Shown: positions 106-43,149 of the stretch, in pieces
Position numbering within the stretch: the stretch's first letter is position 1
Layout of the letters: each line of letters starts with the position of its first letter
NCBI GenBank assembly: GCA_030158125.1
Contig: JAOATL010000001.1
Coordinates: 206-64,205, forward strand
Direction of reading: 5' to 3'
DNA length: 64,000 nt
Source of the DNA: Limnohabitans sp.
GTDB taxonomy: Bacteria; Pseudomonadota; Gammaproteobacteria; Burkholderiales; Burkholderiaceae_C
Notes under the pieces: model-generated
What the model was told of the DNA's origin: nothing
The model's database searches: none
The model's input: only the letters and a program-made list of their open reading frames with translations
Made by a program: the position numbers and the translations under genes

Positions 106-241
106 CTTTGATTGATTGAATTGAAGTCAAGCAAGTCTTTCTTTTTCTCGAGCAGGACCGATATTCGGACAAATGCAGTCCAGATCTTTAGGTTGGCAAG
201 TAGCCCTATGGAACATAAAATCTACGAAACGCGAGCTAAAT

Positions 242-618
242 TTGAAAAAAATCATCATCATTGCAGGACCCAACGGCGCTGGCAAAACCACTTTTGCTCG
301 TGACTTTTTGCCGGCTGAAGCCCAAACGCTAAGGTTCATCAACGCAGACTTGATCGCTGCGGGCTTGGCTCCGTTCAATCCTGAATCAGCAGCCTTCAAG
401 GCTGGCCGCCTGATGTTGGAAGAAATTGATGAGTGCGTGGATGCTGGTCACAGCTTTGCATTTGAAACCACGCTGTCCGGTTTGACGTATTTGAAAAAGA
501 TAGCCTTGTGGCAGGCCTCGATAACTTCCATGAGCGATACCGCAAGGTTGTGAACTCATGGGCTTTTTATGACAGCTCAGGCATGCACCCTAAACTAATT
601 GACTGGAGTAACAAATGA
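242..618 (+). pseudogene. Zeta-toxin-like / predicted ABC-type AAA ATPase with internal deletion and frameshift
   Basis: TTG start gives [16 protein letters not shown] (Walker A), FINADLIA and FAFETTLSG. The frame stops at 553, but another frame from 511 reads [35 protein letters not shown], a family-like C-terminus whose TGA (616-618) overlaps the next ATG. Confidence 0.8.
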
Positions 619-918: not shown

Positions 919-2118
919 CTAACGAGCCATGGTGCTGAGGGCCTCTCGGCCTAAGTCTGGATGATCGGTAAAGAAGCCATCCATGCCAGCCTCAATGAAG
1001 GCTCTCAGTTGTGCTGTCATGTCACCTTTTGCTGAGGGACCCGATCCCCTGGCCAGTTCTGAAGGCAAAAACTGGTTTTCGGCGCGAAACGTCCAACCAT
1101 GAACTAGCAAGCCCCGCGCGTGAGCTTCCTTCATCAACTCAGTCGATGGCAGTAAGCGTCGGCCATCGGTTGGCACGATTAGTTGAGTGTGCGCGCCTAT
1201 GCCATCCGCATAGCCCTTGATGAAATCCAAGCCCGCTGAACGCGCCAAGTCTTGATAGCCACGCGAATCTCCAGTGAGCTGAAAGTCGTAAGGCTTTCCA
1301 TTGGCGCTCAGAAGCTGAACCAGCCGCATCGACGTACGAGTACGGAGATACTGAAGATTGCTCACTTCAAAAGACTGAATGAAGACCGCCGCATCTCGTT
1401 TGTTGCCATATGCGGCGTGCAACTGCGTTAGAAGCAGGTCTTCCATGCGAGGCAAGCCTTTGGCATCGGTGAAACTTTTGAAGTAGCTAGGATGCTTTGT
1501 TTCCGGATAAATGCCAATGGTGCGATTCAATTCATGGCTGCGCCGCTGAGCCAATTCAATGACCTCAGCCAGTGTCGGGATGGGATATTGATCGTTGAAA
1601 GAATTGTTGGCTAGTCGGAAGTCACGCAAGCGCTCCTGCGCGCGGACATCTGCGCGAAGTTCTGCAGCTGTAAAGTCTTCTGCAAACCAGCCAGCGGTCG
1701 GCTTACCATCAAGCTGCTTAATTACAAGTCGATCTGCATACTTATCAAGTTGCCAGACATTGGTACTTGTATCACTGCGATGCAGCGCCGGCTTTCCATC
1801 GGCGCTTCGCTTAATGGTGAGTCCGTCAGCCTCCAATTGCACTCTGGCAAGCATCGGTTCATGCCTTGCATGAAGCACGCCATCTTTGCTAAGAACCAGA
1901 TCGGGCTCGATGAAATCAGCACCTTGATCAATCCCAAGGGCATAGGCCGCCAACGTGTGTTCGGGGCGATACCCTGAAGCACCCCGGTGTGCAATGAGCA
2001 AAGGAGGTCGACCATTCAGAGTTTTAAAGCCGACGCTCTGCCCATGAACCATGTCAAAGCTGCACAACGCTGGCAAGACAGATAAAAACGCACGGCGACT
2101 TAACATTTCACGTGTCAT
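919..2118 (-). CDS. glpQ: Glycerophosphodiester phosphodiesterase (GDPD), Tat-exported
   Basis: IAHRGASGYRPEHT, IEPDLV, HEP and YPETKHP motifs; SRRAFL twin-arginine signal. Confidence 0.9.
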   Translation of the reverse strand: MTREMLSRRAFLSVLPALCSFDMVHGQSVGFKTLNGRPPLLIAHRGASGYRPEHTLAAYALGIDQGADFIEPDLVLSKDGVLHARHEPMLARVQLEADGLTIKRSADGKPALHRSDTSTNVWQLDKYADRLVIKQLDGKPTAGWFAEDFTAAELRADVRAQERLRDFRLANNSFNDQYPIPTLAEVIELAQRRSHELNRTIGIYPETKHPSYFKSFTDAKGLPRMEDLLLTQLHAAYGNKRDAAVFIQSFEVSNLQYLRTRTSMRLVQLLSANGKPYDFQLTGDSRGYQDLARSAGLDFIKGYADGIGAHTQLIVPTDGRRLLPSTELMKEAHARGLLVHGWTFRAENQFLPSELARGSGPSAKGDMTAQLRAFIEAGMDGFFTDHPDLGREALSTMAR

Positions 2119-2161
2119 TGCAATCCTAGTCTATTAACTTTGAACAGGCTCATTCAGAATT

Positions 2162-2845
2162 TTAGATTTTCAACTGCACCAATGAATCTAACCACGCCAA
2201 GGCAGGCGTATTTTGAATGGGCTCACCATGGTTGTAACCATAGGTCATGAGCACCACAGGGCATCCTGCCGCATCAGCCGCTTGCGCATCGTTACTGGAA
2301 TCGCCAATCATCAGGGTCCGTGCTGGCTGACTCTGTAAGGCCTCACAGGTTTTTAACAACGGCAAGGGGTCGGGTTTTTTACGCTCAAAACTGTCGCCAC
2401 CAAATACTTTTGAAAAGTAAGGCGCCAGTCCTTTGTCTCTGATGAGAGGCAGGGTAAATGACACGGGCTTGTTTGTGAGGCAGGCCATGGGCAAACCCAT
2501 TGCTTTGATATGTTCTAAGCCTTCCATGACGCCAGGAAATACATTGGAGAACTCGCCATTGATGCTGAGGTAATGGTGTTCATAGCGCTCCCACACTGGC
2601 GTGAACAATTGCTCAACCTCGCGCGCATTGCCAGCCACTTCAGGCAATGCCAGTTGGTGTTTGAGCACCGTGCGAATGAGATGTTCAGAGCCTTTGCCAA
2701 TGCTGCGCTCAATGAGCGTGCGGTTTGCTGTGGGGACTTGTACGTCTGCAAGGGCGCGGTTTAAGGCAACCTCAAAGTCACCGATGGTGTCGACCATGGT
2801 GCCGTCTAGGTCAATCATGACGGCTTGTAAATTAAGTTGTTTCAT
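2162..2845 (-). CDS. gph: Phosphoglycolate phosphatase (HAD family)
   Basis: DLDGTMVDT motif I, LTNKP, KKPDPLPL, MIGDSSND; probable start MKQLNLQ at 2845 (ORF track starts at 2884). Confidence 0.88.
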   Translation of the reverse strand: MKQLNLQAVMIDLDGTMVDTIGDFEVALNRALADVQVPTANRTLIERSIGKGSEHLIRTVLKHQLALPEVAGNAREVEQLFTPVWERYEHHYLSINGEFSNVFPGVMEGLEHIKAMGLPMACLTNKPVSFTLPLIRDKGLAPYFSKVFGGDSFERKKPDPLPLLKTCEALQSQPARTLMIGDSSNDAQAADAAGCPVVLMTYGYNHGEPIQNTPALAWLDSLVQLKI

Positions 2846-2873
2846 GGGGTGTACTGCAATGGAAATCGGAAAA

Positions 2874-3980
2874 TCAAACTGCAAAAAGTCTGACTTGGGA
2901 TGGCGGCAAGCTTAAATTCAAGGGTGTGCCCACAGCCAATTTAGGCAAGCCAGCATAGTGTGCTTGGTCGACAGACAAAGACTGCTGCCCCACCCGCACG
3001 CGATAACGCGTCGACTCGCCCATGAATTCGCTGGCCTCAACCGTGCCTTGAATGCGAATGGCGCTCTGATCAGAAGTCGACGTGTTCACGTCCAATTTCA
3101 CGGCGTGCGGCCTAAAGCTCAGTTGAACAGACTGCCCGTTGGCAAACTTTTTAGAGTCTAGGGCAACTTCGGAGGCCACGGGCAGCGTAACCTGCCCAAC
3201 ACCCATGACATCCAGTTCCAAGTGGTCTGCGTGTTGGCTAATAACTTTGGCATCCAGCATGTTCATGGTGCCTACAAAGTTGGCCACGAAAGCATTCACG
3301 GGTTTATCGTAGAGTTCGACGGGAGAGCCCACTTGCTGCACCACGCCTTGATCAAGCACAGCCATGCGGTCGGCGGTGGTCATGGCCTCCTCTTGGTCGT
3401 GCGTCACGAAAATGGTGGTAATGCCCAAGCGACGTTGCAGGGCCAAGAGCTCTTGGCGCATTTGGACCCGCAATGTTTTGTCGAGGTTAGACAAGGGCTC
3501 GTCCAGCAGCAAAACCTGCGGTTCAATCACAATGGTCCGTGCCAATGCCACGCGCTGCTGTTGTCCGCCCGAAAGTTGGTTGGGTTTGCGCTGACCAAAG
3601 GCCGACAAGCCGACCAACTCGAGTGCTGCAGCCACTTTGCTTTGGAGAGTGGCTTTGTCTACTTTACGCTCAACCAAACCAAAAGCCACGTTGTCCCACA
3701 CAGACAAATGAGGCCACAAGGCATAGCTTTGAAAGACCATGCCAATGTTGCGATCCCACGGCTCTTGTTGGCCAATGTCGCGACCATCAACCAACAATTC
3801 ACCGTGTTGATGCTTGTTAAAACCTGCAATCAGTCGCAACAATGTACTTTTGCCAGAACCTGACGGACCCAGTAATGCAAAAAATTCACCGGGTTGAATG
3901 TCGAGGTTGACGTTTTTGAGCACTTCCGTGCTTCCATAAGCCAAACGGATGTTGCGGCATTGAACGCTGACTTTTTTCAT
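2874..3980 (-). CDS. ABC transporter ATP-binding subunit (PotA/FbpC/AfuC-like, with TOBE domain)
   Basis: GPSGSGKST, LSGGQQQR, LLLDEP, VTHD. Confidence 0.95.
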   Translation of the reverse strand: MKKVSVQCRNIRLAYGSTEVLKNVNLDIQPGEFFALLGPSGSGKSTLLRLIAGFNKHQHGELLVDGRDIGQQEPWDRNIGMVFQSYALWPHLSVWDNVAFGLVERKVDKATLQSKVAAALELVGLSAFGQRKPNQLSGGQQQRVALARTIVIEPQVLLLDEPLSNLDKTLRVQMRQELLALQRRLGITTIFVTHDQEEAMTTADRMAVLDQGVVQQVGSPVELYDKPVNAFVANFVGTMNMLDAKVISQHADHLELDVMGVGQVTLPVASEVALDSKKFANGQSVQLSFRPHAVKLDVNTSTSDQSAIRIQGTVEASEFMGESTRYRVRVGQQSLSVDQAHYAGLPKLAVGTPLNLSLPPSQVRLFAV

Positions 3981-5728
3981 GATGAATGTTCCTTGCGAGG
4001 GGCCAAGCGGCTTGCAGTCCGCTCAACCACGCGGTGTGACAAATAGGTGCCAATGGCCACCACCAAGATGGCCAGTACACCGAGAGCCGCGCCGGGTCCA
4101 CGACCCGCCACACTTTGCATGTACAAATAAATACCGTAACTCATAGGCGCTTGCGAGTCTGCCGATACCAGCATGATGGTGGCCGACAACTCAACAGCGG
4201 CTGTGATGAAGCTTGTGACAAACCCAGCCAAGATGCCACCCGTCATCAGTGGCACCAGTACCCTTCGAATGCTGCGCATTTTGTTGGCACCCACACTTTC
4301 GGCGGCTTCCTCTAGGGAGATGTGAACTTGCTGCAAAGCGGCCATGCAACTGCGCAAGGCATAAGGCAATCGGCGTACCGCATAGGCCAACATGATGGCC
4401 ACCCAAGTACCCGTGAGCAAGACATCGGTGCCAGGCACCGTGACACCTTTGAACATGCGCAAGAAGCCAATGGCCAACACAATGCCAGGCACCGCCAGCG
4501 ATGCAGTAGCAATCCAATCAAGCCATTGGCGAGCAGGCAGTTGTGTGCGCAAGATCAAATAAGCAATGGTGACGCCCAGCAACACGTCCAGCCCTGCAGC
4601 CAGTCCGCAGTAAATCAAGGTGTTTTGAATCATGCCGCTGGCATCCTGAAACACCGTGGCGTAGTGTTCAAGTGTGTAGGCGTCGGGCAAAGGCGAGAAG
4701 CTCCAAACTTTTGCAAATGACAACAACAAAACACCCAGATGGGGAGACAAGGTGATGAGCAAGATCACGCCAATCCAAAGGTAAGCCAGTGCACTTTCGA
4801 AGGGTGAAAGTTGACGGCGCTGAATGCTAGCGCCCCCTTTTTGTAAGGTGGAAAAATCGCGACCCTTCAATGCTCTGGCAGAAGTGACCATAGCGCCAAT
4901 TGAAAAAACAATCATGAGCACGCTGATGACGTAGCCCATCGGGTCTTCTAGGCCCACTTGTGTGATGCGCAAGTAGGCTTGAGGTGCCAGCATGTTGGTT
5001 TGCCCCATCACCAAGGGCGTGCCCAAATCATCAAACACTTTGACAAATACCAAAGACGCACCTGCCACAAAACCTGGCAGTCCGAGCGGAAAAATAACGC
5101 GCCAAAACAAGCGCCAACCTTTGCATCCCAGATTCATGGCAGCCTCTTCCATGGCGCCGTCAATGTTGCGCAGGGCAACGGTGAGGTTCATGAGAATGAA
5201 GGGGAAGTAATGAATGGCCTCCACAAAGATGACGCCATTGAGACCTTCCATGATGGGCAGCGTAAAACCAAACGCATCGTTGAGCAATAAATTCAAGGTG
5301 CCCGAGCGTCCAAAAATGAGTTGCAGTGCCACAGCGCCCACAAAGGGCGGCATGATGAGTGGCAGCACTCCCAAGGTTTGAATGAGAAGCGCGCCTCTAA
5401 AATCAAACCGAACTGTGAAGTAGGCCAAAGGAACTGCAATCAGCGCGGCAAAAATAGCCGACATCACAGCCACATACAGGCTGTTGATGAATGACTCACG
5501 CATCAAGTCTTGCGAAAAGAATGCGCTGAAATGTCCGAGTGTGAAACTGTTGTCGCCGTCTAAAAAAGCCGTGATAAAAACCCGCGTGACGGGCAATGCA
5601 AAAAACAGCAGCAGGAAAACCAACACCAAGCCACCGGCCAGCCAAACACCTGGTCGCACATCAGCCCACCCAGTTTGAGGCCGTGCTGTTCCTTGCGGCT
5701 TCATGGCCGCCTGCCCATTCATCGACAT
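3977..5728 (-). CDS. ABC transporter fused permease (FbpB/AfuB-like)
   Basis: Two EEAA motifs (MEEAAMNLG, LEEAAESVG); about 12 TM segments; 4-nt overlap with the ATPase gene. Confidence 0.92.
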   Translation of the reverse strand: MSMNGQAAMKPQGTARPQTGWADVRPGVWLAGGLVLVFLLLFFALPVTRVFITAFLDGDNSFTLGHFSAFFSQDLMRESFINSLYVAVMSAIFAALIAVPLAYFTVRFDFRGALLIQTLGVLPLIMPPFVGAVALQLIFGRSGTLNLLLNDAFGFTLPIMEGLNGVIFVEAIHYFPFILMNLTVALRNIDGAMEEAAMNLGCKGWRLFWRVIFPLGLPGFVAGASLVFVKVFDDLGTPLVMGQTNMLAPQAYLRITQVGLEDPMGYVISVLMIVFSIGAMVTSARALKGRDFSTLQKGGASIQRRQLSPFESALAYLWIGVILLITLSPHLGVLLLSFAKVWSFSPLPDAYTLEHYATVFQDASGMIQNTLIYCGLAAGLDVLLGVTIAYLILRTQLPARQWLDWIATASLAVPGIVLAIGFLRMFKGVTVPGTDVLLTGTWVAIMLAYAVRRLPYALRSCMAALQQVHISLEEAAESVGANKMRSIRRVLVPLMTGGILAGFVTSFITAAVELSATIMLVSADSQAPMSYGIYLYMQSVAGRGPGAALGVLAILVVAIGTYLSHRVVERTASRLAPRKEHSS

Positions 5729-5744
5729 GGTGTGGACCTAGGGC

Positions 5745-7088
5745 TTACTTGACGGCGGCCAAGGCTTGATCTGCCAAGCTCTTTGCACGCTCGTAGTTTT
5801 GGCGTGCACTGTTGTTCCAGTAGTTTTCCAAACCCGTCACGCTTTTACTGACGGCCGCATCCTTTTTGTTGGCGGCAAACAAAGCCAAGAATTCTTTGTC
5901 AGCCGCTTTCTGTGCATTGACCACAGGACTGAAAGCAGCTTCACGGGCTTGCTTGATGAGATCTGCTGCATTGGCGTTGGGCTTTTTGGCCAAAGCAGCT
6001 TCAGCGGCATGAATGGCCTTGGTTGCGGCTTGCAGTTCTTTCAAGCGGAAGGTGATGGTTTGGTCAAACAAGGCAGAGACCACGTTGTAGCGGGCTTCAG
6101 ACAAGTCGGAGTTGAACTGAACCTTGGCACGCTTGGCAATTTCAAAGGGGTTTGGGTAACCCGCTGGCGTCTTGCCGCCCATGGCTTCGGGTGGCAAGAT
6201 GGGCAAGCGAGAAATTTTGGGGTTGTAGAGCAACTCTTGCCCTTGTTGTGACACGGTGTAGCTGATGAACTTTCTTGCCTCAGATGCATTTTTGCTACCT
6301 GCAACCAAGGCGATATTGGCTGGCACAACTGCAGTGACATCGGGGTACACAAACTCCACTGGGAAGCCGGAATACTTGCCAGCCAAGCCAAAGAAGTCAA
6401 TCACCAGGCCAATGCCAAACTGGCCATTGTTGACACCATCGGGCACACCAAAACTGCGCTCGGTGATGGCCGCACTGTTGCCAGAAATTTGCAGCAATTG
6501 ACGCCAGCCTTTTTCCCAACCTTCACCTTGCAAAAGTGTTTCGACGGTTAAATGGGTGGTGCCAGAACGTGAGGGTGAGCTCATGGCCACGTGGCCAAAA
6601 TACTCGGGCTTGATCAGATCGGCCCACTGCTTTGGCGCGGGCACTTTGTTGGCCGCCATGTAACGCGTGTTCCACATCAAGCCATAACCGGCCAAGGCTT
6701 GGCCTAGGTACATGTTGTCGGGCGCATTGATGGGATAGGCGCCCACTTTGGCGGGAGTCGCTTTGTTGGCCAAGTCGCCAATGCGTTCAAGCAATTTAAG
6801 ACCAGACATTACTTCAAAGGCATCGGGTGCGGAGGCCCAGAACACATCGGGTCGTTGGCCTACAGGCAATTCGCGAACATATGAAATACCTTGCACCGTG
6901 TTTTTGTTCAAGATCTCAATCTTGATATCGGGGTTGGCTTTTTCAAAGGCTGACTTGTAGATTTGTGTCAGCTCTTTAGGGAATGAGGTGATAACAGTCA
7001 CAGTTCCGGCGTTTGCTAACTGAGCGCCAGAACCCAGCAGTGTCAGGGCTGCGGCCAAAATAGTTTGCGAGATTAAATTTGAATTCAT
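5745..7088 (-). CDS. ABC substrate-binding protein, Fe/AfuA-type fold, PgtC-like
   Basis: Signal peptide; MSSPSRSGTTHLTVETLLQ..GW..GW and ERSFGV..V motifs resemble Salmonella PgtC as recalled. Confidence 0.85.
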   Translation of the reverse strand: MNSNLISQTILAAALTLLGSGAQLANAGTVTVITSFPKELTQIYKSAFEKANPDIKIEILNKNTVQGISYVRELPVGQRPDVFWASAPDAFEVMSGLKLLERIGDLANKATPAKVGAYPINAPDNMYLGQALAGYGLMWNTRYMAANKVPAPKQWADLIKPEYFGHVAMSSPSRSGTTHLTVETLLQGEGWEKGWRQLLQISGNSAAITERSFGVPDGVNNGQFGIGLVIDFFGLAGKYSGFPVEFVYPDVTAVVPANIALVAGSKNASEARKFISYTVSQQGQELLYNPKISRLPILPPEAMGGKTPAGYPNPFEIAKRAKVQFNSDLSEARYNVVSALFDQTITFRLKELQAATKAIHAAEAALAKKPNANAADLIKQAREAAFSPVVNAQKAADKEFLALFAANKKDAAVSKSVTGLENYWNNSARQNYERAKSLADQALAAVK

Positions 7089-7207
7089 TAGCGGGACTTA
7101 TAAAGATTGACTGAAAAAAATGATGTTACTGCCATAGGCACTGAATGACTACTCAGAATTACGATAATCCATGAAAGTTGAATTCTGCATTTTTTCTTTC
7201 TAAATGA

Positions 7208-9121
7208 TCAAGATCCAACGATACCGCCATCGATTTTTCGAATGGCCACTAAAGATGATCGTGGGCGCCCATTGGTCGCATAGTCAGGCCAATTGGAATA
7301 TTGGGTGGGGTTGGCAGGATCGCTTCGATCGGATGGCGTCTCCCCGGGGTGTTGAATGCTGACAAACATGGTGGTGCTGTCCGGGGTTAAAGCAACGCCC
7401 GTCACCTCACAGTTGGTTGGCCCTGTTAAAAATCGCCGGGTTTCGCCCGTAGCGGTGTCACAAGCCAACATTTGATTGTTACCAATCCGCGCCAACTCAC
7501 CTTTGTACATTTGTGTTGCATGAGCATCGGTTTGAATCCACAGAACACCTTGCTTGTCAAATGTGATGCCATCTGGACATGCGTAAATATCGCCTTTGAT
7601 ATTGCCTTTTGCGTCGGTTCGCTGGTTGTTAGGGTCACCAGCCAAAACCAAATGGTTCCATTCAAATGTGCGACCGTCAAAATCATTCTCATCCTTCCAT
7701 CGAATGATCTGTCCCATCACGTTATTTGTCCTAGGGTTTGCTGCATCGACACCAGGTCTGCCAGGGGCACCTCGTTGGCTGTTGTTTGTCAGGGTGCAAT
7801 AGACCCAACCAGATTGTGGATCAATGGTGAGCCATTCAGGACGGTCCATTTTGGTAGCGCCTAACAAGTCACTGGCTTGTCTTGATTTAATGAGCACTTC
7901 ACCTTGATCTGCAAATCCGTTGGCGGCAGTGAGAGGGCCTTGGCCATGCACCATGGGAATCCATTGGCCTTTGCCATTGGCATCAAACCTTGCGACATGC
8001 AACACGCCATGGTCTAGCAAATCTTTGTTGGCCTGAGCCTGAGTCATGCCATTGCCAGCTTGTTTAATTTTGTCGCGACTGACAAATTTATAAATGTACT
8101 CAAAGCGCGCATCTTCGCCTGAATAAACAACGGCTCTACCATCTTTTGTAACACCCACCCAAGCACCTTCGTGCGCAGCGCGACCCAATGCCGTCCGTTT
8201 GACAGGTGTGCTGTTTGGATCCATAGGGTCCAATTCAACCACCCATCCGAATCGGTGAAACTCATTTGGATTTTTTTGCAAATCAAATCTTGGGTCATGC
8301 TTGTCCCAAGCGTAAAAACCAGACTTGGGTGCCCCCCAGCGTTGTTGATCTTTGGTCGGCTTGTCTCCTGCTCCAAAATAAAAAGCAAAGTTTTCTTCAC
8401 CAGACAGATAAGTGCCCCAGGGCGTTTTGCTGCTCGCGCAATTGTTCAAAGTTCCTAAAACCGTAACGCCTTGTGGATCGGCCGATGTGCGCATCAAGGC
8501 ATGTCCTGCCGCGGGTCCAGCCACTCTAAAGGGTGTGCTCAACGTCACGCGACGCGCATAGGGCGATGGGCGAACCATGTCCCAACGGCCGTTTTTCATT
8601 TCAACTTCAATGACCGATAAACCATGCGCGTTTTGGGCTTTGCGCACCTTCTCTGGATTCATCTGGTTGAAACCGCCGACATGCAACAAGCCGTCGTCGG
8701 TGTACTCATGATTGATCGCCAGCAAGCCGCGAGTCGAACCTTGCAAAGGAAAAAACGCCAAACCATCGTGGTGCATGCCCATTTGCACAGCCTGATCTTC
8801 TGCCGTGTTGCTGCCATCCATTTTGAAGGCAGGCATACGACCTGCTATGCCCACGGGCTCACCCCAAGGGGCCAAAGGCATCGCCGTGTAGCCTTCTGGC
8901 ACGACCAACTTATCGCCCATACCAGCTGGAATGGGCTTGAATCCAAGTTTCTTTTGAGGTCCTGAAAGCACTGCGCAGCCCGCCAAGGGCGCCATGACCG
9001 ATGCCAATGAAACAACAACGCCGCCTTTTAGAAAAGCCCTTTTAGAAGTTTCAATCACCTCATGAATGCTTAGATTTGAAGAGAGGTTACTGTCTTCCAT
9101 CACACTAAAGTCTTTGGCCAT
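7208..9121 (-). CDS. phoX: PhoX-family alkaline phosphatase, probable Tat lipoprotein
   Basis: MGMHHDG, NHEY, NNCA, TPWGTYLSGEEN, GRAAHEG, MDRPEW, CPDGI, CEVTG, SIQHPGE; lipobox LAGC. Confidence 0.95.
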   Translation of the reverse strand: MAKDFSVMEDSNLSSNLSIHEVIETSKRAFLKGGVVVSLASVMAPLAGCAVLSGPQKKLGFKPIPAGMGDKLVVPEGYTAMPLAPWGEPVGIAGRMPAFKMDGSNTAEDQAVQMGMHHDGLAFFPLQGSTRGLLAINHEYTDDGLLHVGGFNQMNPEKVRKAQNAHGLSVIEVEMKNGRWDMVRPSPYARRVTLSTPFRVAGPAAGHALMRTSADPQGVTVLGTLNNCASSKTPWGTYLSGEENFAFYFGAGDKPTKDQQRWGAPKSGFYAWDKHDPRFDLQKNPNEFHRFGWVVELDPMDPNSTPVKRTALGRAAHEGAWVGVTKDGRAVVYSGEDARFEYIYKFVSRDKIKQAGNGMTQAQANKDLLDHGVLHVARFDANGKGQWIPMVHGQGPLTAANGFADQGEVLIKSRQASDLLGATKMDRPEWLTIDPQSGWVYCTLTNNSQRGAPGRPGVDAANPRTNNVMGQIIRWKDENDFDGRTFEWNHLVLAGDPNNQRTDAKGNIKGDIYACPDGITFDKQGVLWIQTDAHATQMYKGELARIGNNQMLACDTATGETRRFLTGPTNCEVTGVALTPDSTTMFVSIQHPGETPSDRSDPANPTQYSNWPDYATNGRPRSSLVAIRKIDGGIVGS

Positions 9122-9319
9122 GGTCCATCAAATTGAAATAAACATTCCTAACCTTAACATTTGCAGAAGTAATTTGGGTCAGGCACTAGGGTTTGTATCA
9201 ATGCACGTACTGCGTTTAGGCATCAAAACTTTTATCTGTAACTGGGTCAAGCCAAGGTCGAGGGGCCATTAAAAGAACCCCGAGTAATCGTTCAGGGCAT
9301 TTGTCATTGTTCAAACAAA

Positions 9320-10678
9320 TCAAAGTTCCAACATGGTTTTCAAGAATGCGCTTTTCCATTCCATTTTTTGTTGAATACATTTTTTACCCGCCACAAATAA
9401 ATTGCGAACTTCAAATGAAGGCGTAGAAAAAATCATTGCATCCATCAAACGTTCAACCGGCACACCCAGCAGCGCATGCGAATCCAAGTCAATTTCTACC
9501 AAGTCTGCACGTTGGCCTAAAGCGATACCTGACAAAGGCAAACCAGCAGCCTGTGAACCGCCTTGAACGGAATTTTCAAACAACACTTGACCCGTTGAGC
9601 CGAGCCCATTGAGATGCAGCAAACTGACATTGCGTTTGCGCAATGACAATCGACATCCGTACTCTAGCAAACGAAGTTCTTCAGCCCAATTGCGGTTGAC
9701 ATGACTGTCTGTACCAATAGACCATCGCATTTTTTGAAGAAGGCCTTCGGGTAGATCAAATAAACCATCACCCAAGTTTGCTTCAGTGGTGGGGCACAAA
9801 ACGACAGAAGCTTGCTGCACTTGGATGCCTCTTATTTCTGGAACGGAGGTATGTGTGGCGTGAACCAGATTCCACCGCGCATCCATATTGGCGTGCGCAA
9901 GCAACCATTCAACTGGGCGCAGACCTGTGTGCGCAACACAATCTGCAACTTCCTTCGTTTGCTCGGCCACATGAATGTGCACTGGTGCAGTACCACTACT
10001 AGAAGTTAAGTTAAGAATCTCTATTTCAGCAACAGCTCTAAGCGAATGAATTGCAACACCAGAGGTCAAGCAAGCTTGCTTGCCGCTTGCGTTGGCATAC
10101 TCAATGACGGATTGCTGTATGCCCAGAATAGACTCTGGCGTGGAAGCAAACCTCCTTTGCATAGAGTTCAAACCAGGCTGACCAAAGCCCTGATTCATGT
10201 AGAGTGTAGGCAGCATGGTTAAGCCAATACCCACCTTTTCAGCAGCGCGAACCAAGGCCCAAGTCATCTCAGCAGCATCGGCGTAATTTTGCCCATCTGG
10301 GTTGCGATGCAAATAGTGAAACTCACAGACATGTGTATAGCCGCTTTGCAGCATTTCGCTATAAAGCCACGTGGCGATTGCCTCCAAATGATCAGGCCCA
10401 ACGCGCAGCGCCACTCGGTACATGCGATCACGCCAACTCCAAAAATCATCACCAGATTGCGAACTGTGTTCAGTCAATCCAGCAATGGCTCTTTGAAACG
10501 CATGGCTGTGCGCATTCACCAGGCCTGGTACGACACACCCAAGCTGCTCGGCACCAGAAGTCTCTGCCGGGGCTGCATTCGGCTGAATACGCTTCCAGAA
10601 ACCCTGCGTATCCGACTCTAAAAGTACATTGGCAGCCCAGGCACCATCAACCCAAGCCCAGTTCGCTTTGTATTTCAT
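9320..10678 (-). CDS. hutF: Formimidoylglutamate deiminase
   Basis: PGLVNAHSHAFQRA, DDFWSWR, EFHYLH, HSLRAV, HVAEQ, CPTTEANLGDG. Confidence 0.95.
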   Translation of the reverse strand: MKYKANWAWVDGAWAANVLLESDTQGFWKRIQPNAAPAETSGAEQLGCVVPGLVNAHSHAFQRAIAGLTEHSSQSGDDFWSWRDRMYRVALRVGPDHLEAIATWLYSEMLQSGYTHVCEFHYLHRNPDGQNYADAAEMTWALVRAAEKVGIGLTMLPTLYMNQGFGQPGLNSMQRRFASTPESILGIQQSVIEYANASGKQACLTSGVAIHSLRAVAEIEILNLTSSSGTAPVHIHVAEQTKEVADCVAHTGLRPVEWLLAHANMDARWNLVHATHTSVPEIRGIQVQQASVVLCPTTEANLGDGLFDLPEGLLQKMRWSIGTDSHVNRNWAEELRLLEYGCRLSLRKRNVSLLHLNGLGSTGQVLFENSVQGGSQAAGLPLSGIALGQRADLVEIDLDSHALLGVPVERLMDAMIFSTPSFEVRNLFVAGKKCIQQKMEWKSAFLKTMLEL

Positions 10679-11478
10679 AGATTCAATGATTTAACTTGGT
10701 TCAGTGCCGCAAGCATCATCTTGTGCAGCAGGGGCTGAACTTGTGCTGCCAATTGGGGTTGGTAGTCATAAGGCGGCAGTTCGCTCATGTAGATAGATTG
10801 ACATTTTTCAAGTTGAACGGCATGAATGCCTCCTTGAGGATTGCCATAGTGACGTGTGATGTAGCCACCTTTAAAGCGTCCATTGAGAACATGTGTAAAT
10901 TGGTCTTGCTGTTCGCAGACGCTCATCACGGCCTGCCCAACAGACTCCGCAGCGGCCAAACCGTTTGCCGTACCCACGTTCAAATCTGGCAATTTGCCTT
11001 CAAACAGCCACGAAATTTCACCTCTGATGCTGTGCGCATCCCACAACAGAACATTAGAGTGCAATGAACGGAGCCTGCGCAATTCCATTGCAAGGGCTTG
11101 GTGATAAGGCTGCCAGTATGTTTCTAGGCGACGCAATTTTTCTGCGACATCTGGCTCGCGGCCCTCTTTGTAAAGCAAATCACCCGTGAAAAAGCGTGTG
11201 GGGCACAGCTCTGTGTTGGATGCGCCTGGATACATGGGCGCATCATTAGGGGGCCGATTTAAGTCAATCACATACCGAGAAAATACGGGCGTCAAAATAC
11301 TGGCACCCATGTCTGTTAAAAAATTGTACAAATGGTTCAAATGCCAATCTGCGTCCTCCACTAAATGCGCGCGTGGAACATAGTTAGGCTTTAACGCTTC
11401 TGGCAAGCTGGTTCCCAAGTGGGGCATGCTCACAAGTAAGGGCGATGTGCCTTGGTGCAAATAAAATGTCGGTGTCAT
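10675..11478 (-). CDS. hutG: N-formylglutamate deformylase
   Basis: SMPHLGT, DADWH, SRYVIDLNRPP, YWQPYH, WDAHSI, LPDLNVGT, NGRFKGGYITRHYG; start MTPTF at 11478. Confidence 0.95.
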   Translation of the reverse strand: MTPTFYLHQGTSPLLVSMPHLGTSLPEALKPNYVPRAHLVEDADWHLNHLYNFLTDMGASILTPVFSRYVIDLNRPPNDAPMYPGASNTELCPTRFFTGDLLYKEGREPDVAEKLRRLETYWQPYHQALAMELRRLRSLHSNVLLWDAHSIRGEISWLFEGKLPDLNVGTANGLAAAESVGQAVMSVCEQQDQFTHVLNGRFKGGYITRHYGNPQGGIHAVQLEKCQSIYMSELPPYDYQPQLAAQVQPLLHKMMLAALNQVKSLNL

Positions 11479-11480
11479 TT

Positions 11481-12719
11481 TTAAAATATGTGTGTGTTCG
11501 AAGTTGTTGCGCGAATCTGTCCGCCCCATACAGTTGACAAACACGGGTTGGATCCAAATGCATAGGCCAGCTCGGCGGGATGACTGACATCCCACAAAAC
11601 AAAATCGGCACATTGATTTGCAGACAATACGCCACGATCTTTCAACCCTAATGCCTGAGCGGCTATTCGAGTCACCCCAGCCAACGCTTCTTGTGGCGTC
11701 AAGCGCATGAAGGTGCATGCCATGTTCAACATCAGCAATAGAGATGTGCAGGGTGAGCTACCAGGGTTTGAATCCGTAGAGATTGCCATGGGTACTTTGT
11801 GTTGCCTCAAAAGCTCTATGGGCGGCAGTTTGGTTTCACGAATAAAGTAGAAAGCACCGGGCAACAACACCGCCACAGTACCCGCCCTGGCCATCGCAGC
11901 TGCGCCCTCCTCGTTCAGCCATTCCAAATGATCGCAACTCAATGCACCATACTGTGAAGCCAAGGATGCGCCGCGACTGTTTGTCAGTTGTTCTGCATGT
12001 AACTTCACAGGCAAATTCAATCGTTGCGCTTCTTTAAAGACTTTTTCAGTCTGTGCATACGTAAAACCAATTCGGTCACAGAAAGCGTCGACAGCATCGA
12101 TCAAACCTTCAGCCTTCAGGGGTTCGATCATGGCGACCACGGCATCGATGTACGCATCTGATTTGTCTTGAAATTCTGGCGGTACGGCATGTGCCCCTAA
12201 AAAGGTATTTTGGATTTGAACCAAGTTATCCTTTGCAAGTTGCCGTGCAACTCGCAAACACTTAGCTTCGTCCGCCAGTGACAAGCCATAGCCCGATTTG
12301 ATCTCAAGTGTGGTCACGCCTTCGTTCAGAAGATGGTTCAGACGTTTTTTCGCAGATTTGTAGAGTTGCGCTTCCGTTGCCAAACGTGTGGCTTCGACTG
12401 TAGATTTAATTCCACCACCAGCACGTGCAATGTCTTCGTAGCTTGCGCCATTCAAACGCAATTCAAACTCATTGGCACGGTGTCCGCCATAGACCAAATG
12501 TGTGTGGCAATCAACCAAACCGGGTGTTATCAGTGCATTGCGTGCGTCGTGTATCGCTGCACCATGACGGTATTGAGCAGGCATATCTGTGCGGGGCCCC
12601 ACCCATGCCAAATACTCACCCTCAATGACGAGCGCGCCATCATCAATCAAACCATAGTTAGCATCTTGGCCTGCTTGCAGGGTTGCAAGTCGTGCGTTTT
12701 CCCAAATCTCAAAACTCAT
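11481..12719 (-). CDS. hutI: Imidazolonepropionase
   Basis: TPGLVDCHTHLV, GGGI, EIKSGYGL, KLHAEQL, DHLE, DSNPGSSP; ATGA overlap with hutD. Confidence 0.96.
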   Translation of the reverse strand: MSFEIWENARLATLQAGQDANYGLIDDGALVIEGEYLAWVGPRTDMPAQYRHGAAIHDARNALITPGLVDCHTHLVYGGHRANEFELRLNGASYEDIARAGGGIKSTVEATRLATEAQLYKSAKKRLNHLLNEGVTTLEIKSGYGLSLADEAKCLRVARQLAKDNLVQIQNTFLGAHAVPPEFQDKSDAYIDAVVAMIEPLKAEGLIDAVDAFCDRIGFTYAQTEKVFKEAQRLNLPVKLHAEQLTNSRGASLASQYGALSCDHLEWLNEEGAAAMARAGTVAVLLPGAFYFIRETKLPPIELLRQHKVPMAISTDSNPGSSPCTSLLLMLNMACTFMRLTPQEALAGVTRIAAQALGLKDRGVLSANQCADFVLWDVSHPAELAYAFGSNPCLSTVWGGQIRATTSNTHIF

Positions 12720-13291
12720 GGTGAACACTCCATTTGAATCAACAGCACATGCATGTCATGGAATTCGATCTGAACGTCCTGCTCAAGTGTGACCCAATAC
12801 AAAGACATTTTGTTCAATTCTTGTCTTTGTTGATTGAGCACGAAATGTCCTCCTTCTTCTACAACAAAGACAGCCAAAGTGGTTTTTGCCTTGAATTTTT
12901 GGGCAAAAGTTAAGCGGTTGATCCGGGCCATGTTGGCTGTTGCACCCTGAACCATGAGATTGAAATCCAGGGTGGGACCGGCTGTGAGAGAACAATCACA
13001 GGGCGTATCGCCGGAGAACTGAATGACGGGATCCAAGGGCCCTAAGTCAATTTTATGATTGGGAAACGCCAGAGTAACACCGGCACCGTTGAGTACAGCA
13101 AACCACCGGTCTACGCCTTTGAATTCAGAAAACGGCCCATCGCTGTCAATCCGTGCGACAGACATTCTAAAAACCCATTCCGACGAATTAGGCCAACACA
13201 CCAAAGCTTGCGTAGTACCACCGCCATTTTTCCAGGGACTCGCGGGAACATCCCGAAGCCTTACTTCATGCCAATCTTGCAGGCGCGTCAT
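12716..13291 (-). CDS. hutD: HutD/Ves family protein
   Basis: PWKNGGGTT, R.SVA.I..DGPFS.F.GVDR, DFNLM. Confidence 0.93.
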   Translation of the reverse strand: MTRLQDWHEVRLRDVPASPWKNGGGTTQALVCWPNSSEWVFRMSVARIDSDGPFSEFKGVDRWFAVLNGAGVTLAFPNHKIDLGPLDPVIQFSGDTPCDCSLTAGPTLDFNLMVQGATANMARINRLTFAQKFKAKTTLAVFVVEEGGHFVLNQQRQELNKMSLYWVTLEQDVQIEFHDMHVLLIQMECSP

Positions 13292-14014: not shown

Positions 14015-14043
14015 TTGACAGAAGTTGTATAGACAACTAGGAT
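14015..14043 (+). promoter_or_regulatory. Sigma70 promoter of hutU with HutC operator in the spacer
   Basis: TTGACA (14015-20), 17 nt, TAGGAT (14038-43); palindrome AGTTGT-ATAG-ACAACT (14023-38) is close to the HutC TGTA-N2-TACA consensus. Confidence 0.85.
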
Positions 14044-14080
14044 GAACTTACTTTCAGTCAAATTGATAATCTTTTTCACC

Positions 14081-15784
14081 ATGACAGCCTCTACAAAAAC
14101 GAACCCTCCACTCAGAAAAGCACGCCCCGTCAGAGCACCACGCGGAACTGAAATCAGTTGCGCCAGTTGGGAAATTGAGGCAGCCTATCGAATGATTCAA
14201 AACAACCTCGATCCCGAAGTTGCAGAGAATCCCGATGAATTGGTGGTTTACGGCGGCATTGGAAAAGCAGCCCGAAACTGGGATTGCTTCGAAGCCATTT
14301 TGGAGTCGCTGAAAAAATTAATGCCGGATGAGACTCTGCTCATTCAGTCGGGTAAACCCGTAGGTATTTTCAAAACACACACTGGTGCACCACGTGTCTT
14401 GTTGGCCAACTCAAATTTAGTGCCCAAGTGGGCTACTTGGGAACATTTCAACGAACTCGATCGTGCAGGACTCATGATGTACGGCCAAATGACTGCCGGC
14501 AGCTGGATTTACATTGGCAGTCAAGGCATTGTTCAAGGCACGTACGAGACCTTTGTTGAAGCCGGCAGGCAACACTTCAATGGCGATTTATCGGGTCGAT
14601 GGATTTTGACAGCAGGCCTGGGTGGCATGGGGGGCGCACAACCTTTGGCCGCCACCTTTGCAGGCGCATGTTCACTGAACATTGAGTGTCAGCAATCGCG
14701 TATCGACTTTCGCTTAAAGACAAAATATGTCGACAAACAAGCCGCCACAGTTCAAGAGGCACTTGACATGATTGCATACCATACGGCTCGCAAAGAAGCC
14801 GTGTCTATTGCGTTGTGCGGCAATGCGGCCGAACTATTGCCTCAACTGGTTGCCATCGCCAAACAGGGCGGCATGCGCCCCGACATCGTCACTGACCAAA
14901 CATCCGCACATGACATCATTAACGGTTATTTGCCACTTGGCTGGACCCTAGAAGACTGGCGTGCAGCGCAAAAAGATCCTAGCCGCCATGCAGAACTCAC
15001 GCAGGCTGCAGGTGAGTCATGTGCCACTCATGTAAAGGCCTTGTTGGCATTTCATGAAATGGGCATTCCCACCGTTGACTACGGAAATAACTTAAGGCAA
15101 GTTGCCAAAGATTATGGTGTCGAGAACGCCTTTGACTATCCAGGCTTTGTACCTGCTTATATTCGTCCTCTTTTCTGCCAAGGCATCGGTCCATTTCGCT
15201 GGGTTGCACTGAGTGGCGACCCAGAGGATATTTTAAAAACCGACGCCAAAATGAAGGCGTTGTTTCCCCATCACAAGCACTTACACCGTTGGCTAGATAT
15301 GGCACAAGAGCGCATCAGTTTTCAGGGCTTGCCTGCGCGCATTTGCTGGATTGGCTTAGGCGAACGACATTTGGCAGGGTTGGCCTTTAACGAAATGGTT
15401 CGCAATGGCGAGCTCAAGGGGCCAATAGTCATCGGCCGAGACCATTTAGACAGTGGCTCTGTTGCTTCACCCAATCGAGAAACAGAAGCCATGATGGATG
15501 GCAGTGATGCTGTCAGTGATTGGCCCTTATTGAACGCGCTTCTAAACACAGCCAGCGGTGCCACGTGGGTCAGCTTGCACCACGGCGGTGGTGTCGGCAT
15601 GGGTTACTCGCAACACTCGGGCGTTGTCATTGTTTGTGACGGCACTCAGGCAGCTGATGAGAAGCTATCAAGGGTTTTGTTTAACGACCCCGCCACAGGC
15701 GTCATGCGCCATGCCGATGCAGGTTATGACCTGGCCAAAGAATCGGCCAAATTAAACAATTTGCAATTGCCTATGTTGATCTGA
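14081..15784 (+). CDS. hutU: Urocanate hydratase
   Basis: [55 protein letters not shown]; start placed downstream of the promoter at 14081. Confidence 0.97.
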
Positions 15785-15845
15785 TTTTTTCTGATTCATT
15801 TTCCCGCCGTATTTTTTTTCATTTTTTATTTACCAAGGAGCTCGC

Positions 15846-16790
15846 ATGAAACAACTCGTTACCTTCGCTTTGGCCTCAACCCTAAGCTGTGTTGCACTCG
15901 CCCAAGAAACCAAAGTGAGCATTGCGCTCTCTGGCTGGACGGGGTTTGCCCCGCTGACGCTTGCCAAAGAAGCTGGCATTTTTAAGAAAAATGGCCTGGA
16001 TGTCACCTTGAAAAAAGTGCCACAAAAGGATCGTCATTTGGTCTTGGCGTCAGGCGATGCGCAATGCGCAGCCACTACAGTTGAAACGTGGATTGCTTGG
16101 AATGCCAACGGCGTTGCCACAACTCAAATTTTTCAGCTTGACAAGAGCTTCGGTGCCGATGGCATGGTTGTTAAAAACGACATTGCCAAAATTACAGACC
16201 TCAAAGGCAAAACAGTTGCAGCGAGCGCCCCTGGAACAGCCCCCTTCTTCACACTGGCCTGGATGCTGAAAAAAAATGGCATGTCGACCAAAGACGTCAA
16301 GATTGTGAACTTAGAGCCACAACCAGCAGCCAACGCAATGATTGCAGGCAATGCTGGCATTGACGCCGCCATGACGTATGAGCCCTACCTTGGCGCTGTG
16401 CGTGCAAAGCCTGAAGCCGGCAAGATCATTGCCACAACACTTGACTACCCCATGATCATGGACACCTTCGGCTGCGTGCCTAAATTCTTGTCTGACAATC
16501 CCAAGGCTGCAAAAGCCATTGCAGACAGTTACTTCGAAGCCATTGAAATGATCAGCAAAGAACCTAAGAAAAGCTTTGCGATCATGGGAGCTGATGTGAA
16601 ACAAACTGGAGAGGCATTTGAAGCCAGTCAGAAGTATTTGCGCTGGCAAGATCGTGCTGCAAATCTGAAGTTTTTCAGTGGCGAGCATGCGCAATTCAGC
16701 AAAGAAGCGGCAGATTTACTTTTAGAAGCAGGCATCATCAAACAATTACCCGACATGAGTAAATTGGCTGATACGCGCTTTATCAAATAA
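15846..16790 (+). CDS. NitT/TauT-family ABC substrate-binding protein
   Basis: Signal peptide; SGWTGFAP, GADG...K.DI..I.DLKGK.VA; AAGGAG RBS. Confidence 0.88.
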   Translation: MKQLVTFALASTLSCVALAQETKVSIALSGWTGFAPLTLAKEAGIFKKNGLDVTLKKVPQKDRHLVLASGDAQCAATTVETWIAWNANGVATTQIFQLDKSFGADGMVVKNDIAKITDLKGKTVAASAPGTAPFFTLAWMLKKNGMSTKDVKIVNLEPQPAANAMIAGNAGIDAAMTYEPYLGAVRAKPEAGKIIATTLDYPMIMDTFGCVPKFLSDNPKAAKAIADSYFEAIEMISKEPKKSFAIMGADVKQTGEAFEASQKYLRWQDRAANLKFFSGEHAQFSKEAADLLLEAGIIKQLPDMSKLADTRFIK

Positions 16791-16795
16791 GAAAC

Positions 16796-17572
16796 ATGCG
16801 CCCATTGCAACCTGTATCACCTGGCGCCAAAGTGGCGCTGGGTATTTCATTCTTTGTTGTGTTCTTCGCTGTGTGGGCATTTGCCACATTGGGGGGCTAC
16901 GTTTCAAAGACATTTTTGGCTGATCCGATCACGATGGTCAGATCGGGTATTGATCTCTTGGTCAACCAAGGATTTGGATTTGACATTGGCATGACTGTTT
17001 GGCGTGTGTTGGGCGGCTTTTTTATAGCGGCCATTCTGGCCATTCCAATTGGTGTTTTGATGGGCGCCTACAAACCCATCGAAGCATTTTTGGAGCCCTT
17101 CGTCAGCTTTGCCAGGTACCTTCCTGCTTCTGCCTTTATTCCACTCCTCATTTTGTGGGCAGGCATTGGTGAAACTCAAAAATTAGCGGTCATCTTCATT
17201 GGATCATTCTTCCAATTGATCCTGATGATTGCGGTCTCTGTGGGCAACACCCGGCGTGATTTGGTTGAAGCCGCTTACACGCTTGGCGCAAAAGACAGCG
17301 GTGTCGTAACACGCGTGCTATTACCAAGTGCATCCCCAGAATTGGCCGAAACCTTGAGAATGGTTTTGGGTTGGGCATGGACTTATGTCATTGTGGCCGA
17401 GCTCATTGGCGCTTCAAACGGCATTGGTCACATGATCACCGATAGCCAAGCTTTAATGGCCACTGATCAAATTATTTTTGGAATCATCGTCATTGGCTTG
17501 ATCGGCTTGATCACAGATATTGCCTTCAAATCCTTCAACCGGTGGCTCTTCCCATGGGCACGTTTAAGTTAA
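16796..17572 (+). CDS. NitT/TauT-family ABC permease
   Basis: RYLPASAFIPLLILWAGIGE, LVEAAYTLGA, W..VIVAELIGA..GIG. Confidence 0.92.
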   Translation: MRPLQPVSPGAKVALGISFFVVFFAVWAFATLGGYVSKTFLADPITMVRSGIDLLVNQGFGFDIGMTVWRVLGGFFIAAILAIPIGVLMGAYKPIEAFLEPFVSFARYLPASAFIPLLILWAGIGETQKLAVIFIGSFFQLILMIAVSVGNTRRDLVEAAYTLGAKDSGVVTRVLLPSASPELAETLRMVLGWAWTYVIVAELIGASNGIGHMITDSQALMATDQIIFGIIVIGLIGLITDIAFKSFNRWLFPWARLS

Positions 17573-17575
17573 AAA

Positions 17576-18355
17576 ATGTCCATCCTTCACATCTCTCAAG
17601 TTAGCAAAACATTCAACACGCAAGGTTCAGTGACACAAGCACTGACGGCTACCGACCTGACTGTTGAAGAAAATGATTTCATTACCATACTGGGGCCTTC
17701 TGGTTGCGGCAAATCGACTCTACTGCGGATGGTTGCGGGTCTAGATACGCCGTCATCGGGTGAAATAGAACTAGAAGGCGTTCGAGTCACTGGGCCTGGC
17801 CCTGATCGCGGCATGGTGTTTCAAAGCTACACCCTCTTCCCATGGCTGAACATTTTAGAAAACGTGTGTTTTGGATTGCGTGAAAAAGGCTTGCCTATTT
17901 CAGAGCAGCATGACATTGCGCATCAATTCTTAAAAAAAGTGGGCCTGCAAGACTTTGCAAATCACTATCCCAAACAACTGTCTGGTGGCATGCAGCAAAG
18001 AACTGCATTGGCACGTGCACTGGCCAATGACCCACGCATCTTGCTGATGGATGAACCCTTTGGCGCCCTCGACCATCAAACACGAGAATTGATGCAAGAG
18101 TTACTCCAGGATATTTGGCAATCCGAGAAAAAAACAGTTTTATTTGTCACCCACGACATTGATGAAGCCATCTTCATGGGAAATCGTGTCATGGTGATGA
18201 GTGCAAGGCCAGGTCGCATCAAATGCGATTTACCTATTGCCCTACCCTACCCTCGCCATTATTCGGTCAAGACTTCCCCAATGTTTTCAGAACTCAAAGC
18301 CAGGCTGACAGAAGAAATTCGCATTGAAGTTAGGCGAGCAAGCGGGCTCGAATAA
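17576..18355 (+). CDS. NitT/TauT-family ABC ATPase
   Basis: [32 protein letters not shown]. Confidence 0.95.
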
Positions 18356-18399
18356 GTCACGGTGACAGTTGTTGTGTTCTTGCTTTGAAGGCGCTAATC

Positions 18400-43108: not shown

Positions 43109-43149
43109 TTGAACCTCGCTGATTGGTTGAATGAGCAAATTCTACATCA

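Follow-up and report, generated by a model that had tools for sequence, protein, structure and literature searches.

AfuABC and VcA0625-27, which carry hexose phosphates, and P5PAB, which carries pyridoxal-5'-phosphate, are ATP-binding cassette (ABC) systems that were once read as 'iron-type' but actually import phosphorylated metabolites. Their structures show how: the phosphate is held by Ser, Gly and Thr residues at three helix N-termini in both AfuA and P5PA (PMC4546632, PMC8427247), the sugar of AfuA by H205, D206 and E229 (PMC4546632), and the pyridine ring of P5PA by Y103 and H203 (PMC8427247). In the Salmonella-type phosphoglycerate transport system (pgtP/pgtCBA), the periplasmic regulatory protein PgtC, a phosphoglycerate sensor, works together with PgtB (a kinase), PgtA (a regulator) and the major facilitator superfamily (MFS) antiporter PgtP. 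To our knowledge, no transport role is known for PgtC. Here we describe a system encoded in a 64,000-nucleotide stretch of Limnohabitans sp. DNA (contig JAOATL010000001.1; the window, below), in which the partners of a PgtC-like periplasmic substrate-binding protein (SBP) are an ABC permease and an ABC ATPase. We place the system in the AfuABC/P5PAB/PhnSTUV tradition of phosphorylated-metabolite importers; it is built on the PgtC binding module. It is probably a binding-protein-dependent ABC importer of a small anionic phosphorylated organic compound, with 2- or 3-phosphoglycerate, phosphoenolpyruvate (PEP) or the related 2-phosphoglycolate as the likeliest ligands. Its components are the following.

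5745-7088, minus strand: PgtC-like periplasmic SBP, 447 amino acids (aa), Pfam family SBP_bac_6
3977-5728, minus strand: fused two-domain ABC permease, 583 aa, with two BPD_transp_1 halves
2874-3980, minus strand: ABC ATPase, 368 aa, with a C-terminal TOBE_2 domain (ABC_tran E 7e-39, TOBE_2 E 3e-11)

The three genes are tightly packed, with 16 nucleotides (nt) between the SBP stop and the permease start and a 4-nt overlap between the permease stop and the ATPase start. NCBI names parts of the system 'extracellular solute-binding protein' and 'iron ABC transporter permease'; many close SBP orthologues bear the JGI label 'phosphoglycerate transport regulatory protein PgtC'. The SBP starts with a Sec signal peptide (approximately residues 1-26, cleavage after ANA), followed by a cluster-D two-lobe core (~28-326) and a helical C-terminal extension (~327-446). 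Residues 169-195 read SSPSRSGTTHLTVETLLQGEGWEKGW and residues 211-219 read RSFGVPDGV, which bears out the preliminary description of an 'iron-type' ABC operon with SSPSRSGTTHL- and RSFGV-type motifs. These motifs are not due to chance, since a family that numbers 249 50%-identity clusters at E<=1e-30 has them as its conserved signature.

The resemblance to PgtC, which the preliminary description had proposed, proved to be real. We compared three independent pgt-type loci, those of a gammaproteobacterium with a 2.2-Mb genome (locus L145), Proteus mirabilis and Paracoccus denitrificans, and their PgtC-type proteins, all encoded beside PgtB/PgtA, are 29-33% identical to the SBP with E values of 1e-52 to 1e-56. 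A blastn search of a pgt locus against E. coli genomes gave no match; a genuine pgt locus was reached by a search with the PgtB model. In L145, a 418-aa PgtC sits between PgtP and the PgtB and PgtA homologues; PgtP passes its equivalog model (807.6 bits against a cut-off of 750), and PgtB and PgtA score 674 and 453 bits, respectively. This PgtC, with the motif STPSRSDTTHIMIESLLQEYGWEKGW...RSFGV, is 33% identical to the SBP (E 1e-56). The P. mirabilis pgt-like PgtC is 29% identical over residues 30-438, the C-terminal helices included, and the P. denitrificans sensor-type paralogue is 33% identical over approximately residues 2-342. Overall, the SBP and PgtC share, at 27-33% identity, the PSRSGT.H..E..LQ..GW..GW, RSFGV and ID signature, as well as the ~100-aa C-terminal helical extension with invariant R333, F341 and W424. 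This extension is a hallmark of the entire PgtC-like family.

In the maximum-likelihood tree, the PgtC-like proteins including the SBP form one well-supported group (98/97), from which the remaining cluster-D binding proteins of the same genome are separate. Within this group, the SBP belongs to a clade (support 95/91) in which 14 of the 15 rows are ABC-linked, whereas all five proteins linked to two-component systems fall outside. On this tree, the SBP is a member of an orthologous group of transport proteins that stands beside the sensors and not within them. The ABC-linked clade occurs in alpha- and betaproteobacteria. The possibility that the SBP itself is a PgtC sensor was rejected in view of this clade, the ABC neighbours and a genome without PgtB: a tblastn search of the complete source genome found no PgtB-type sensor region and no PgtP. 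Sensing on behalf of a kinase elsewhere in the genome was rejected as well, since no PgtB-like sensor kinase is encoded. A distinct subclade consists of full-length PgtC-like proteins without an adjacent permease (L140, L141 and L142, in genomes G168, G248 and G160), which have Leu in place of R174 and Asn in place of R211, with a histidine-kinase-like gene upstream in two of the three cases; these proteins may be sensors for another ligand. In two further loci, the operon is adjoined by a gene for another PgtC-like binding protein (L126, 7139-8443; L107, 6191-7396); this diverged protein may provide a second specificity or act as a sensor.

The AlphaFold2 model of the SBP, built from 70 homologues, has a pLDDT of 95.6 and a pTM of 0.90. 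The best Foldseek match is 8x1a, described in the structure library as the glucose-6-phosphate-binding VcA0625, followed by AfuA, Salmonella STM0429 (PhnS, 4r6y) and P5PA, with the ferric proteins after these. At the sequence level, the best matches among solved structures have E values of 7e-16 (8x1a), 3e-12 (P5PA) and 1e-10 (AfuA), and FbpA reaches only 5e-5 to 4e-3. The nearest solved relatives of the SBP by both sequence and fold, VcA0625 with glucose-6-phosphate, AfuA, P5PA and PhnS, bind phosphate esters or phosphonates. The structure matches (~310-320 residues) span the two-lobe core alone; beyond it, the final 120 residues form a confident helical bundle for which Foldseek found no counterpart in the matched structures. 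AfuA and P5PA lack this C-terminal extension and are only ~18% identical to the SBP in structural alignment, although their systems share with that of the SBP the cluster-D binding protein, the fused permease and the ATPase.

Candidate pocket positions were picked by alignment to the AfuA and P5PA contacts together with conservation. In the SBP, S175-G176-T177 aligns with the SGT of AfuA (S148-G149-T150) and of P5PA; by the same alignments T64 lies at the start of the first helix and S212 at the third. The phosphate pocket, with its Ser-Gly-Thr loop, thus appears to be kept. In contrast, only one residue of the AfuA sugar triad is left: in the phmmer alignment with 4r72, D231 pairs with D206, but I230 takes the place of H205, and V254-P256, aligned with the E229 region, includes no Glu. 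Arginines occupy two sites flanking the phosphate position, R174 and R211, where AfuA has phosphate-side Ser/Gly, and further basic residues are found at K/R62, R294 and R333. From the aligned residues we infer a ligand that carries, besides its phosphate, another anionic or polar group; phosphoglycerate, PEP or phosphoglycolate would match this better than a hexose phosphate. Almost all candidate pocket positions are identical between the ABC clade and the alphaproteobacterial sensor paralogues that adjoin its members, the two sensors differing at F233, N258 and one or two other positions. The genuine PgtC largely shares the candidate pocket positions of the ABC clade, too.

Altogether, import is predicted to proceed as follows. 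The Sec-exported 447-aa SBP would capture its ligand in the periplasm, where the helix-N-terminal Ser/Gly/Thr loops (T64, S175-G176-T177, S212) would hold the phosphate, as in AfuA and P5PA, and the conserved basic residues absent from AfuA (K62, R174, R211, R294, R333), together with D231 and Q284, could accommodate the second anionic or polar group. The loaded SBP would then dock on the fused 12-helix permease, import being powered by the TOBE-domain ATPase, and a dedicated cytoplasmic Gph-type phosphatase of the HAD superfamily would free the phosphate. The gene for this phosphatase is a part of a block of six genes (window 919-9121, minus strand), all in the same orientation according to the open reading frame (ORF) calls. 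Apart from the transporter genes, the block comprises the following.

7208-9121, minus strand: PhoX alkaline phosphatase, 637 aa, with a twin-arginine translocation (Tat)-like signal (PF05787, E 9e-165)
7089-7207, minus strand: intergenic region 5' of the SBP gene, ~70 nt of it conserved among Limnohabitans loci
2162-2884, minus strand: Gph-type cytoplasmic HAD phosphatase (TIGR01449, 191.2 bits, above the cut-off of 180)
919-2118, minus strand: GDPD/GlpQ-like glycerophosphodiester phosphodiesterase (GDPD), 399 aa, with the twin-arginine signal SRRAFLS (PF03009, E 3e-35)

Judging by orthologues, the true start of the HAD gene is likely the ATG at 2845, ~28 nt from the ATPase stop. Its translation shows the DLDGT, TNK, K and GDSSND motifs, an intact HAD catalytic set. 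It is the third gph-like copy in the genome and the operon-specific one; a housekeeping copy lies beside ubiG on contig C12 and another paralogue on C10. There is a second, longer PhoX as well (762 aa), encoded in the canonical Pho cluster of contig C21 (4235-13034) after pstS-pstC-pstA-pstB-phoU-phoB-phoR. No terminator-like site was found between phoX and the SBP gene in a scan of the locus; a terminator-like hairpin is located at 9277-9298, 3' of the upstream hut gene. Histidine-utilisation genes (hutF/hutG/hutI-like and others) flank the block at window 9320-12728 and 14042-19953. On its other side, a short P-loop ORF (173-553, plus strand; GPNGAGKT) is zeta-toxin/AAA_33-like and apparently truncated; an intact 193-aa relative adjoins the orthologous block in locus L146.

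We examined approximately 100 loci, from 17 genomes of the same family, 80 Burkholderiales contigs and six further Pseudomonadota genomes. The 80 Burkholderiales loci were obtained by a search with a 9-sequence alignment and hold relatives 63-91% identical, the nearer ones being left out; genes in GC-rich loci were called by a GC3-guided method. In nearly all loci with enough flank, the SBP gene is followed by the genes for the fused permease and the ATPase, so the suggestion that a PgtC-like protein serves a true ABC permease and ATPase is well supported. In some Burkholderiales loci, two tandem ATPase genes, 53-70% identical to that of the window, come after the permease gene (L139, 12386-14669; L114, 12032-14264; L119, 12056-14382). 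The system is patchy in its distribution: it was found in 16 of the 150 sampled genera of the family and is missing from the one other species of the genus in the sample, and full-length members are present in 12 of 401 sampled Pseudomonadota genomes. Nevertheless, species-representative genomes yield at least 569 matches; at E<=1e-3, more than 6800 90%-identity clusters match, which is an upper bound because other cluster-D binding proteins are counted as well.

The phoX/gph setting, which had been part of the original description of the operon, is true of the window but is not a family feature. Linkage of phoX to the transporter is limited to close Limnohabitans relatives (L146 and L149) and is seen in none of the 80 other Burkholderiales loci. 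That it is unique to the source genome was also rejected, as exact-protein look-ups retrieved both phoX-linked copies. The 99%-identical form in L146 has the order phoX-SBP-permease-ATPase-HAD at another chromosomal site. The 96%-identical Limnohabitans form in L149 reads phoX-tctC-phnDCEE-SBP-permease-ATPase-HAD-GDPD and lies beside hut genes; the TctC-family gene and phnD-phnC-phnE-phnE between phoX and the SBP gene (2337-6899) bring the row to 11 co-oriented genes for phosphorus acquisition. Two other Limnohabitans genomes have other genes at the flanks, so the block appears to travel as a unit. The GDPD gene comes last in L149, too, and most other loci lack it.

A Gph-type HAD gene is present in the operons of the window, L048, L054, L110, L146, L149 and Azospirillum, and a histidine phosphatase gene in those of Paracoccus, Azospirillum, L034, L088 and L094, so that cytoplasmic phosphatases of two unrelated superfamilies recur. 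A divergent phnD/C/E transporter adjoins the operon in two alphaproteobacteria (L135 and L138). In Paracoccus and in genome G294, genes for a PgtC-like sensor paralogue, a histidine kinase and a sigma-54 regulator directly precede the ABC operon; Azospirillum has the same trio ~4 kb upstream, with two genes between. In these alphaproteobacteria, the ABC importer takes the place held by PgtP in enterics. The four independent contexts, namely two-component control, phosphatases, phn genes and the Limnohabitans phosphorus block, point to a phosphate ester. In Paracoccus, a PNPOx/PdxH-like gene comes after the ABC operon and histidine phosphatase gene (L010, 12688-13356), which hints that a B6 vitamer phosphate could be the ligand in that lineage.

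Regulation of the system seems to differ between lineages. In G294 and Azospirillum, the sigma-54 promoter sequence TGGCAC-N5-TTGC is found as a single perfect site in 17-20 kb, ~45 nt before the SBP start, against a chance expectation of 0.09 and 0.04 per locus, respectively. Upstream of the sigma-54 promoters, all three alphaproteobacteria (Paracoccus, G294 and Azospirillum) have (A)TGACCCAT / GTTACC-N-ACCCAT repeats, candidate sites for PgtA-like activators, at the following positions.

L010, 7780-7835: (A)TGACCCAT repeats
L011, 7775-7830: (A)TGACCCAT repeats
L136, 8590-8650, minus strand: (A)TGACCCAT repeats

A gene for a LysR regulator follows the ATPase gene in about 25 Burkholderiales loci. 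The 91%-identical Limnohabitans form belongs to this type (SBP-permease-ATPase-LysR-HAD, no phoX), and the source genome has no orthologue of its LysR. The Limnohabitans cassette of the window, without a LysR gene, shares its phosphorus-scavenging block with the genes for PhoX and GDPD, both exported. Because the HAD of the window is 84% identical to the one that follows LysR in the 91%-related locus, yet the LysR orthologue is missing, the phoX-linked form seems to be derived, its dedicated regulator having been lost. Approximately 70 nt upstream of the SBP gene (ATCATCGTAATCCTGAATAGTCAT...CAGTAACATCA) are conserved in five Limnohabitans loci, at the positions below, whatever the upstream gene, which may be phoX, phnE, DAGK or others; the transporter has thus probably retained a promoter region of its own.

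Window, 7089-7207: conserved upstream region
L146, 6883-7000: conserved upstream region
L149, 6900-7000: conserved upstream region
L048, 7748-8000: conserved upstream region
L053, ~8900-9000: conserved upstream region

In the LysR-type locus, this region includes the palindrome ATCAT-N5-ATGAT, a possible LysR box, which is degenerate (ATCATCGTAATCCTGAA) in the phoX-linked loci without LysR.

Several observations weigh against import of a phospho-acid. The genuine L145 PgtC differs from the SBP at several candidate pocket positions (W84I, G176D, F232N and N258F), so the specificities of the two proteins may differ. An adjacent phosphatase is lacking in about 90% of the 80 Burkholderiales loci. 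No convincing Pho box was seen, by eye and in the upstream alignment, upstream of phoX or the SBP gene; the comparison used the TGTCA-type repeats upstream of the pstS of this genome and no locally defined PhoB motif. Finally, all three components have their best NCBIfam matches among the models of PhnS2T2U2 (TIGR03261/03262/03265), a putative 2-aminoethylphosphonate transporter with the same operon layout, albeit far below the cut-offs: PhnS2 for the SBP (120.8 against 392.75 bits), PhnU2 for the permease (174.7 against 593.25) and PhnT2 for the ATPase (372.4 against 457.7). The system might accordingly be a divergent sister of PhnS2T2U2 that imports a phosphonate or another phosphorus anion, such as 2-aminoethylphosphonate, a phosphonocarboxylate or pyrophosphate. 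This would agree with the LysR of related loci, whose best match is the phn-associated LysR model, with the presence of PhnS (4r6y) among the top fold matches and with the phnDCE(E) genes that adjoin the operon in L149, L135 and L138. However, the scores of the three components reach only a third to four-fifths of the equivalog cut-offs, and that of the LysR is likewise far too low (94 against 341 bits); the SBP resembles PgtC-type proteins far more closely (E 1e-52 to 1e-56); and the enzymes that accompany the system are phosphatases, which act on O-P and not on C-P bonds. No phosphonate catabolic genes adjoin the operon, and the 100%-complete source genome has no PhnJ and no PhnX above the cut-off (PhnA, PhnZ and PalA were not among the enzymes searched for). 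We consider a phosphonate importer unlikely.

Glycerol phosphate had been listed beside phosphoglycolate and phosphoglycerate in the preliminary description. The latter two seem the best guess for the ligand, but glycerol phosphate must be marked down because the genome encodes a genuine UgpB, which scores 609 bits where 411 are required. An importer of sn-glycerol-3-phosphate or glycerophosphodiesters, paired with the adjacent exported GDPD, would make sense of the Tat-signal GDPD gene that ends the block in the window and in L149; the ATPase scores 351 bits with the UgpC model, and glycerol-3-phosphate is a close structural analogue of 3-phosphoglycerate. Yet GDPD is missing from nearly all other loci of the family, and the additional conserved arginines would suggest a ligand more negatively charged than glycerol-3-phosphate, which leaves this substrate quite improbable. 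As for ferric iron, perhaps imported for the cofactor of PhoX, automatic annotation calls the components 'ABC-type Fe3+ transport system' and 'iron ABC transporter permease', the cluster-D fold and the SBP_bac_6 family are common to the SBP and FbpA, and phoX adjoins the operon in this lineage. PhoX enzymes use Fe/Ca cofactors. On the other hand, phoX adjacency is missing from the rest of the family, and FbpA matches the SBP only at E 5e-5 to 4e-3. FbpABC and FutABC have the same overall fold and ABC architecture, but their iron-ligand tyrosines are missing from the SBP: at the FbpA Tyr-Tyr site, it reads I230-D231-F232-F233, with Phe-Phe in place of the tyrosines, where the FbpA of the window itself has S-Y-Y. 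The preliminary description was right that the NSYY motif is absent here and present at 42 kb. The protein encoded there (42032-43138) is a real ferric binder because it has the sequence VTNSYYLARM and matches the FutA/IdiA/FbpA crystal structures with E 1.6e-89. Its gene lies between a receptor-like outer-membrane ORF (39667-41901) and its own ATPase and permease genes, so the window already encodes a genuine ferric system, with a TonB-dependent receptor, at 39.7-46 kb. Iron is excluded as far as sequence allows, and we regard an iron importer as highly improbable.

Import of a small phospho-acid remains the preferred assignment for the system. No published characterisation came up in full-text searches, which were aimed at PgtC-like proteins, at the KEGG orthologue number and at ABC transporters of phosphoglycerate, PEP or phosphoglycolate; their coverage is incomplete and this is absence of evidence only, but it agrees with the original claim that the system is undescribed. 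A wider scheme can be put forward tentatively. The PgtC fold could be a ligand module with two uses, as the sensor that, with PgtB/PgtA, drives an MFS antiporter in enterics and as the capture protein of an ABC importer family in alpha- and betaproteobacteria, with sensor and transport paralogues with near-identical pockets in one sigma-54-controlled alphaproteobacterial locus; in Limnohabitans, the importer would lie in a phoX/phn/GDPD island and take up intact C2-C3 phospho-acids (phosphoglycolate, phosphoglycerate, PEP) from phytoplankton. If true, dissolved organic phosphorus would be used by a route that has so far gone undescribed. In thousands of genomes and metagenome bins, the system bears the labels 'iron(III) ABC transporter' or 'PgtC', and if phospho-acids are imported, a systematic misannotation would be corrected, following the AfuABC precedent. 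An ATP-driven route for glycolytic and photorespiratory phosphate esters would then join Ugp, Phn, Afu and the OPA antiporters, and the natural pair of sensor and transporter paralogues would permit the study of one module in both signalling and transport. The finding bears on the phosphorus supply of abundant lake bacterioplankton.

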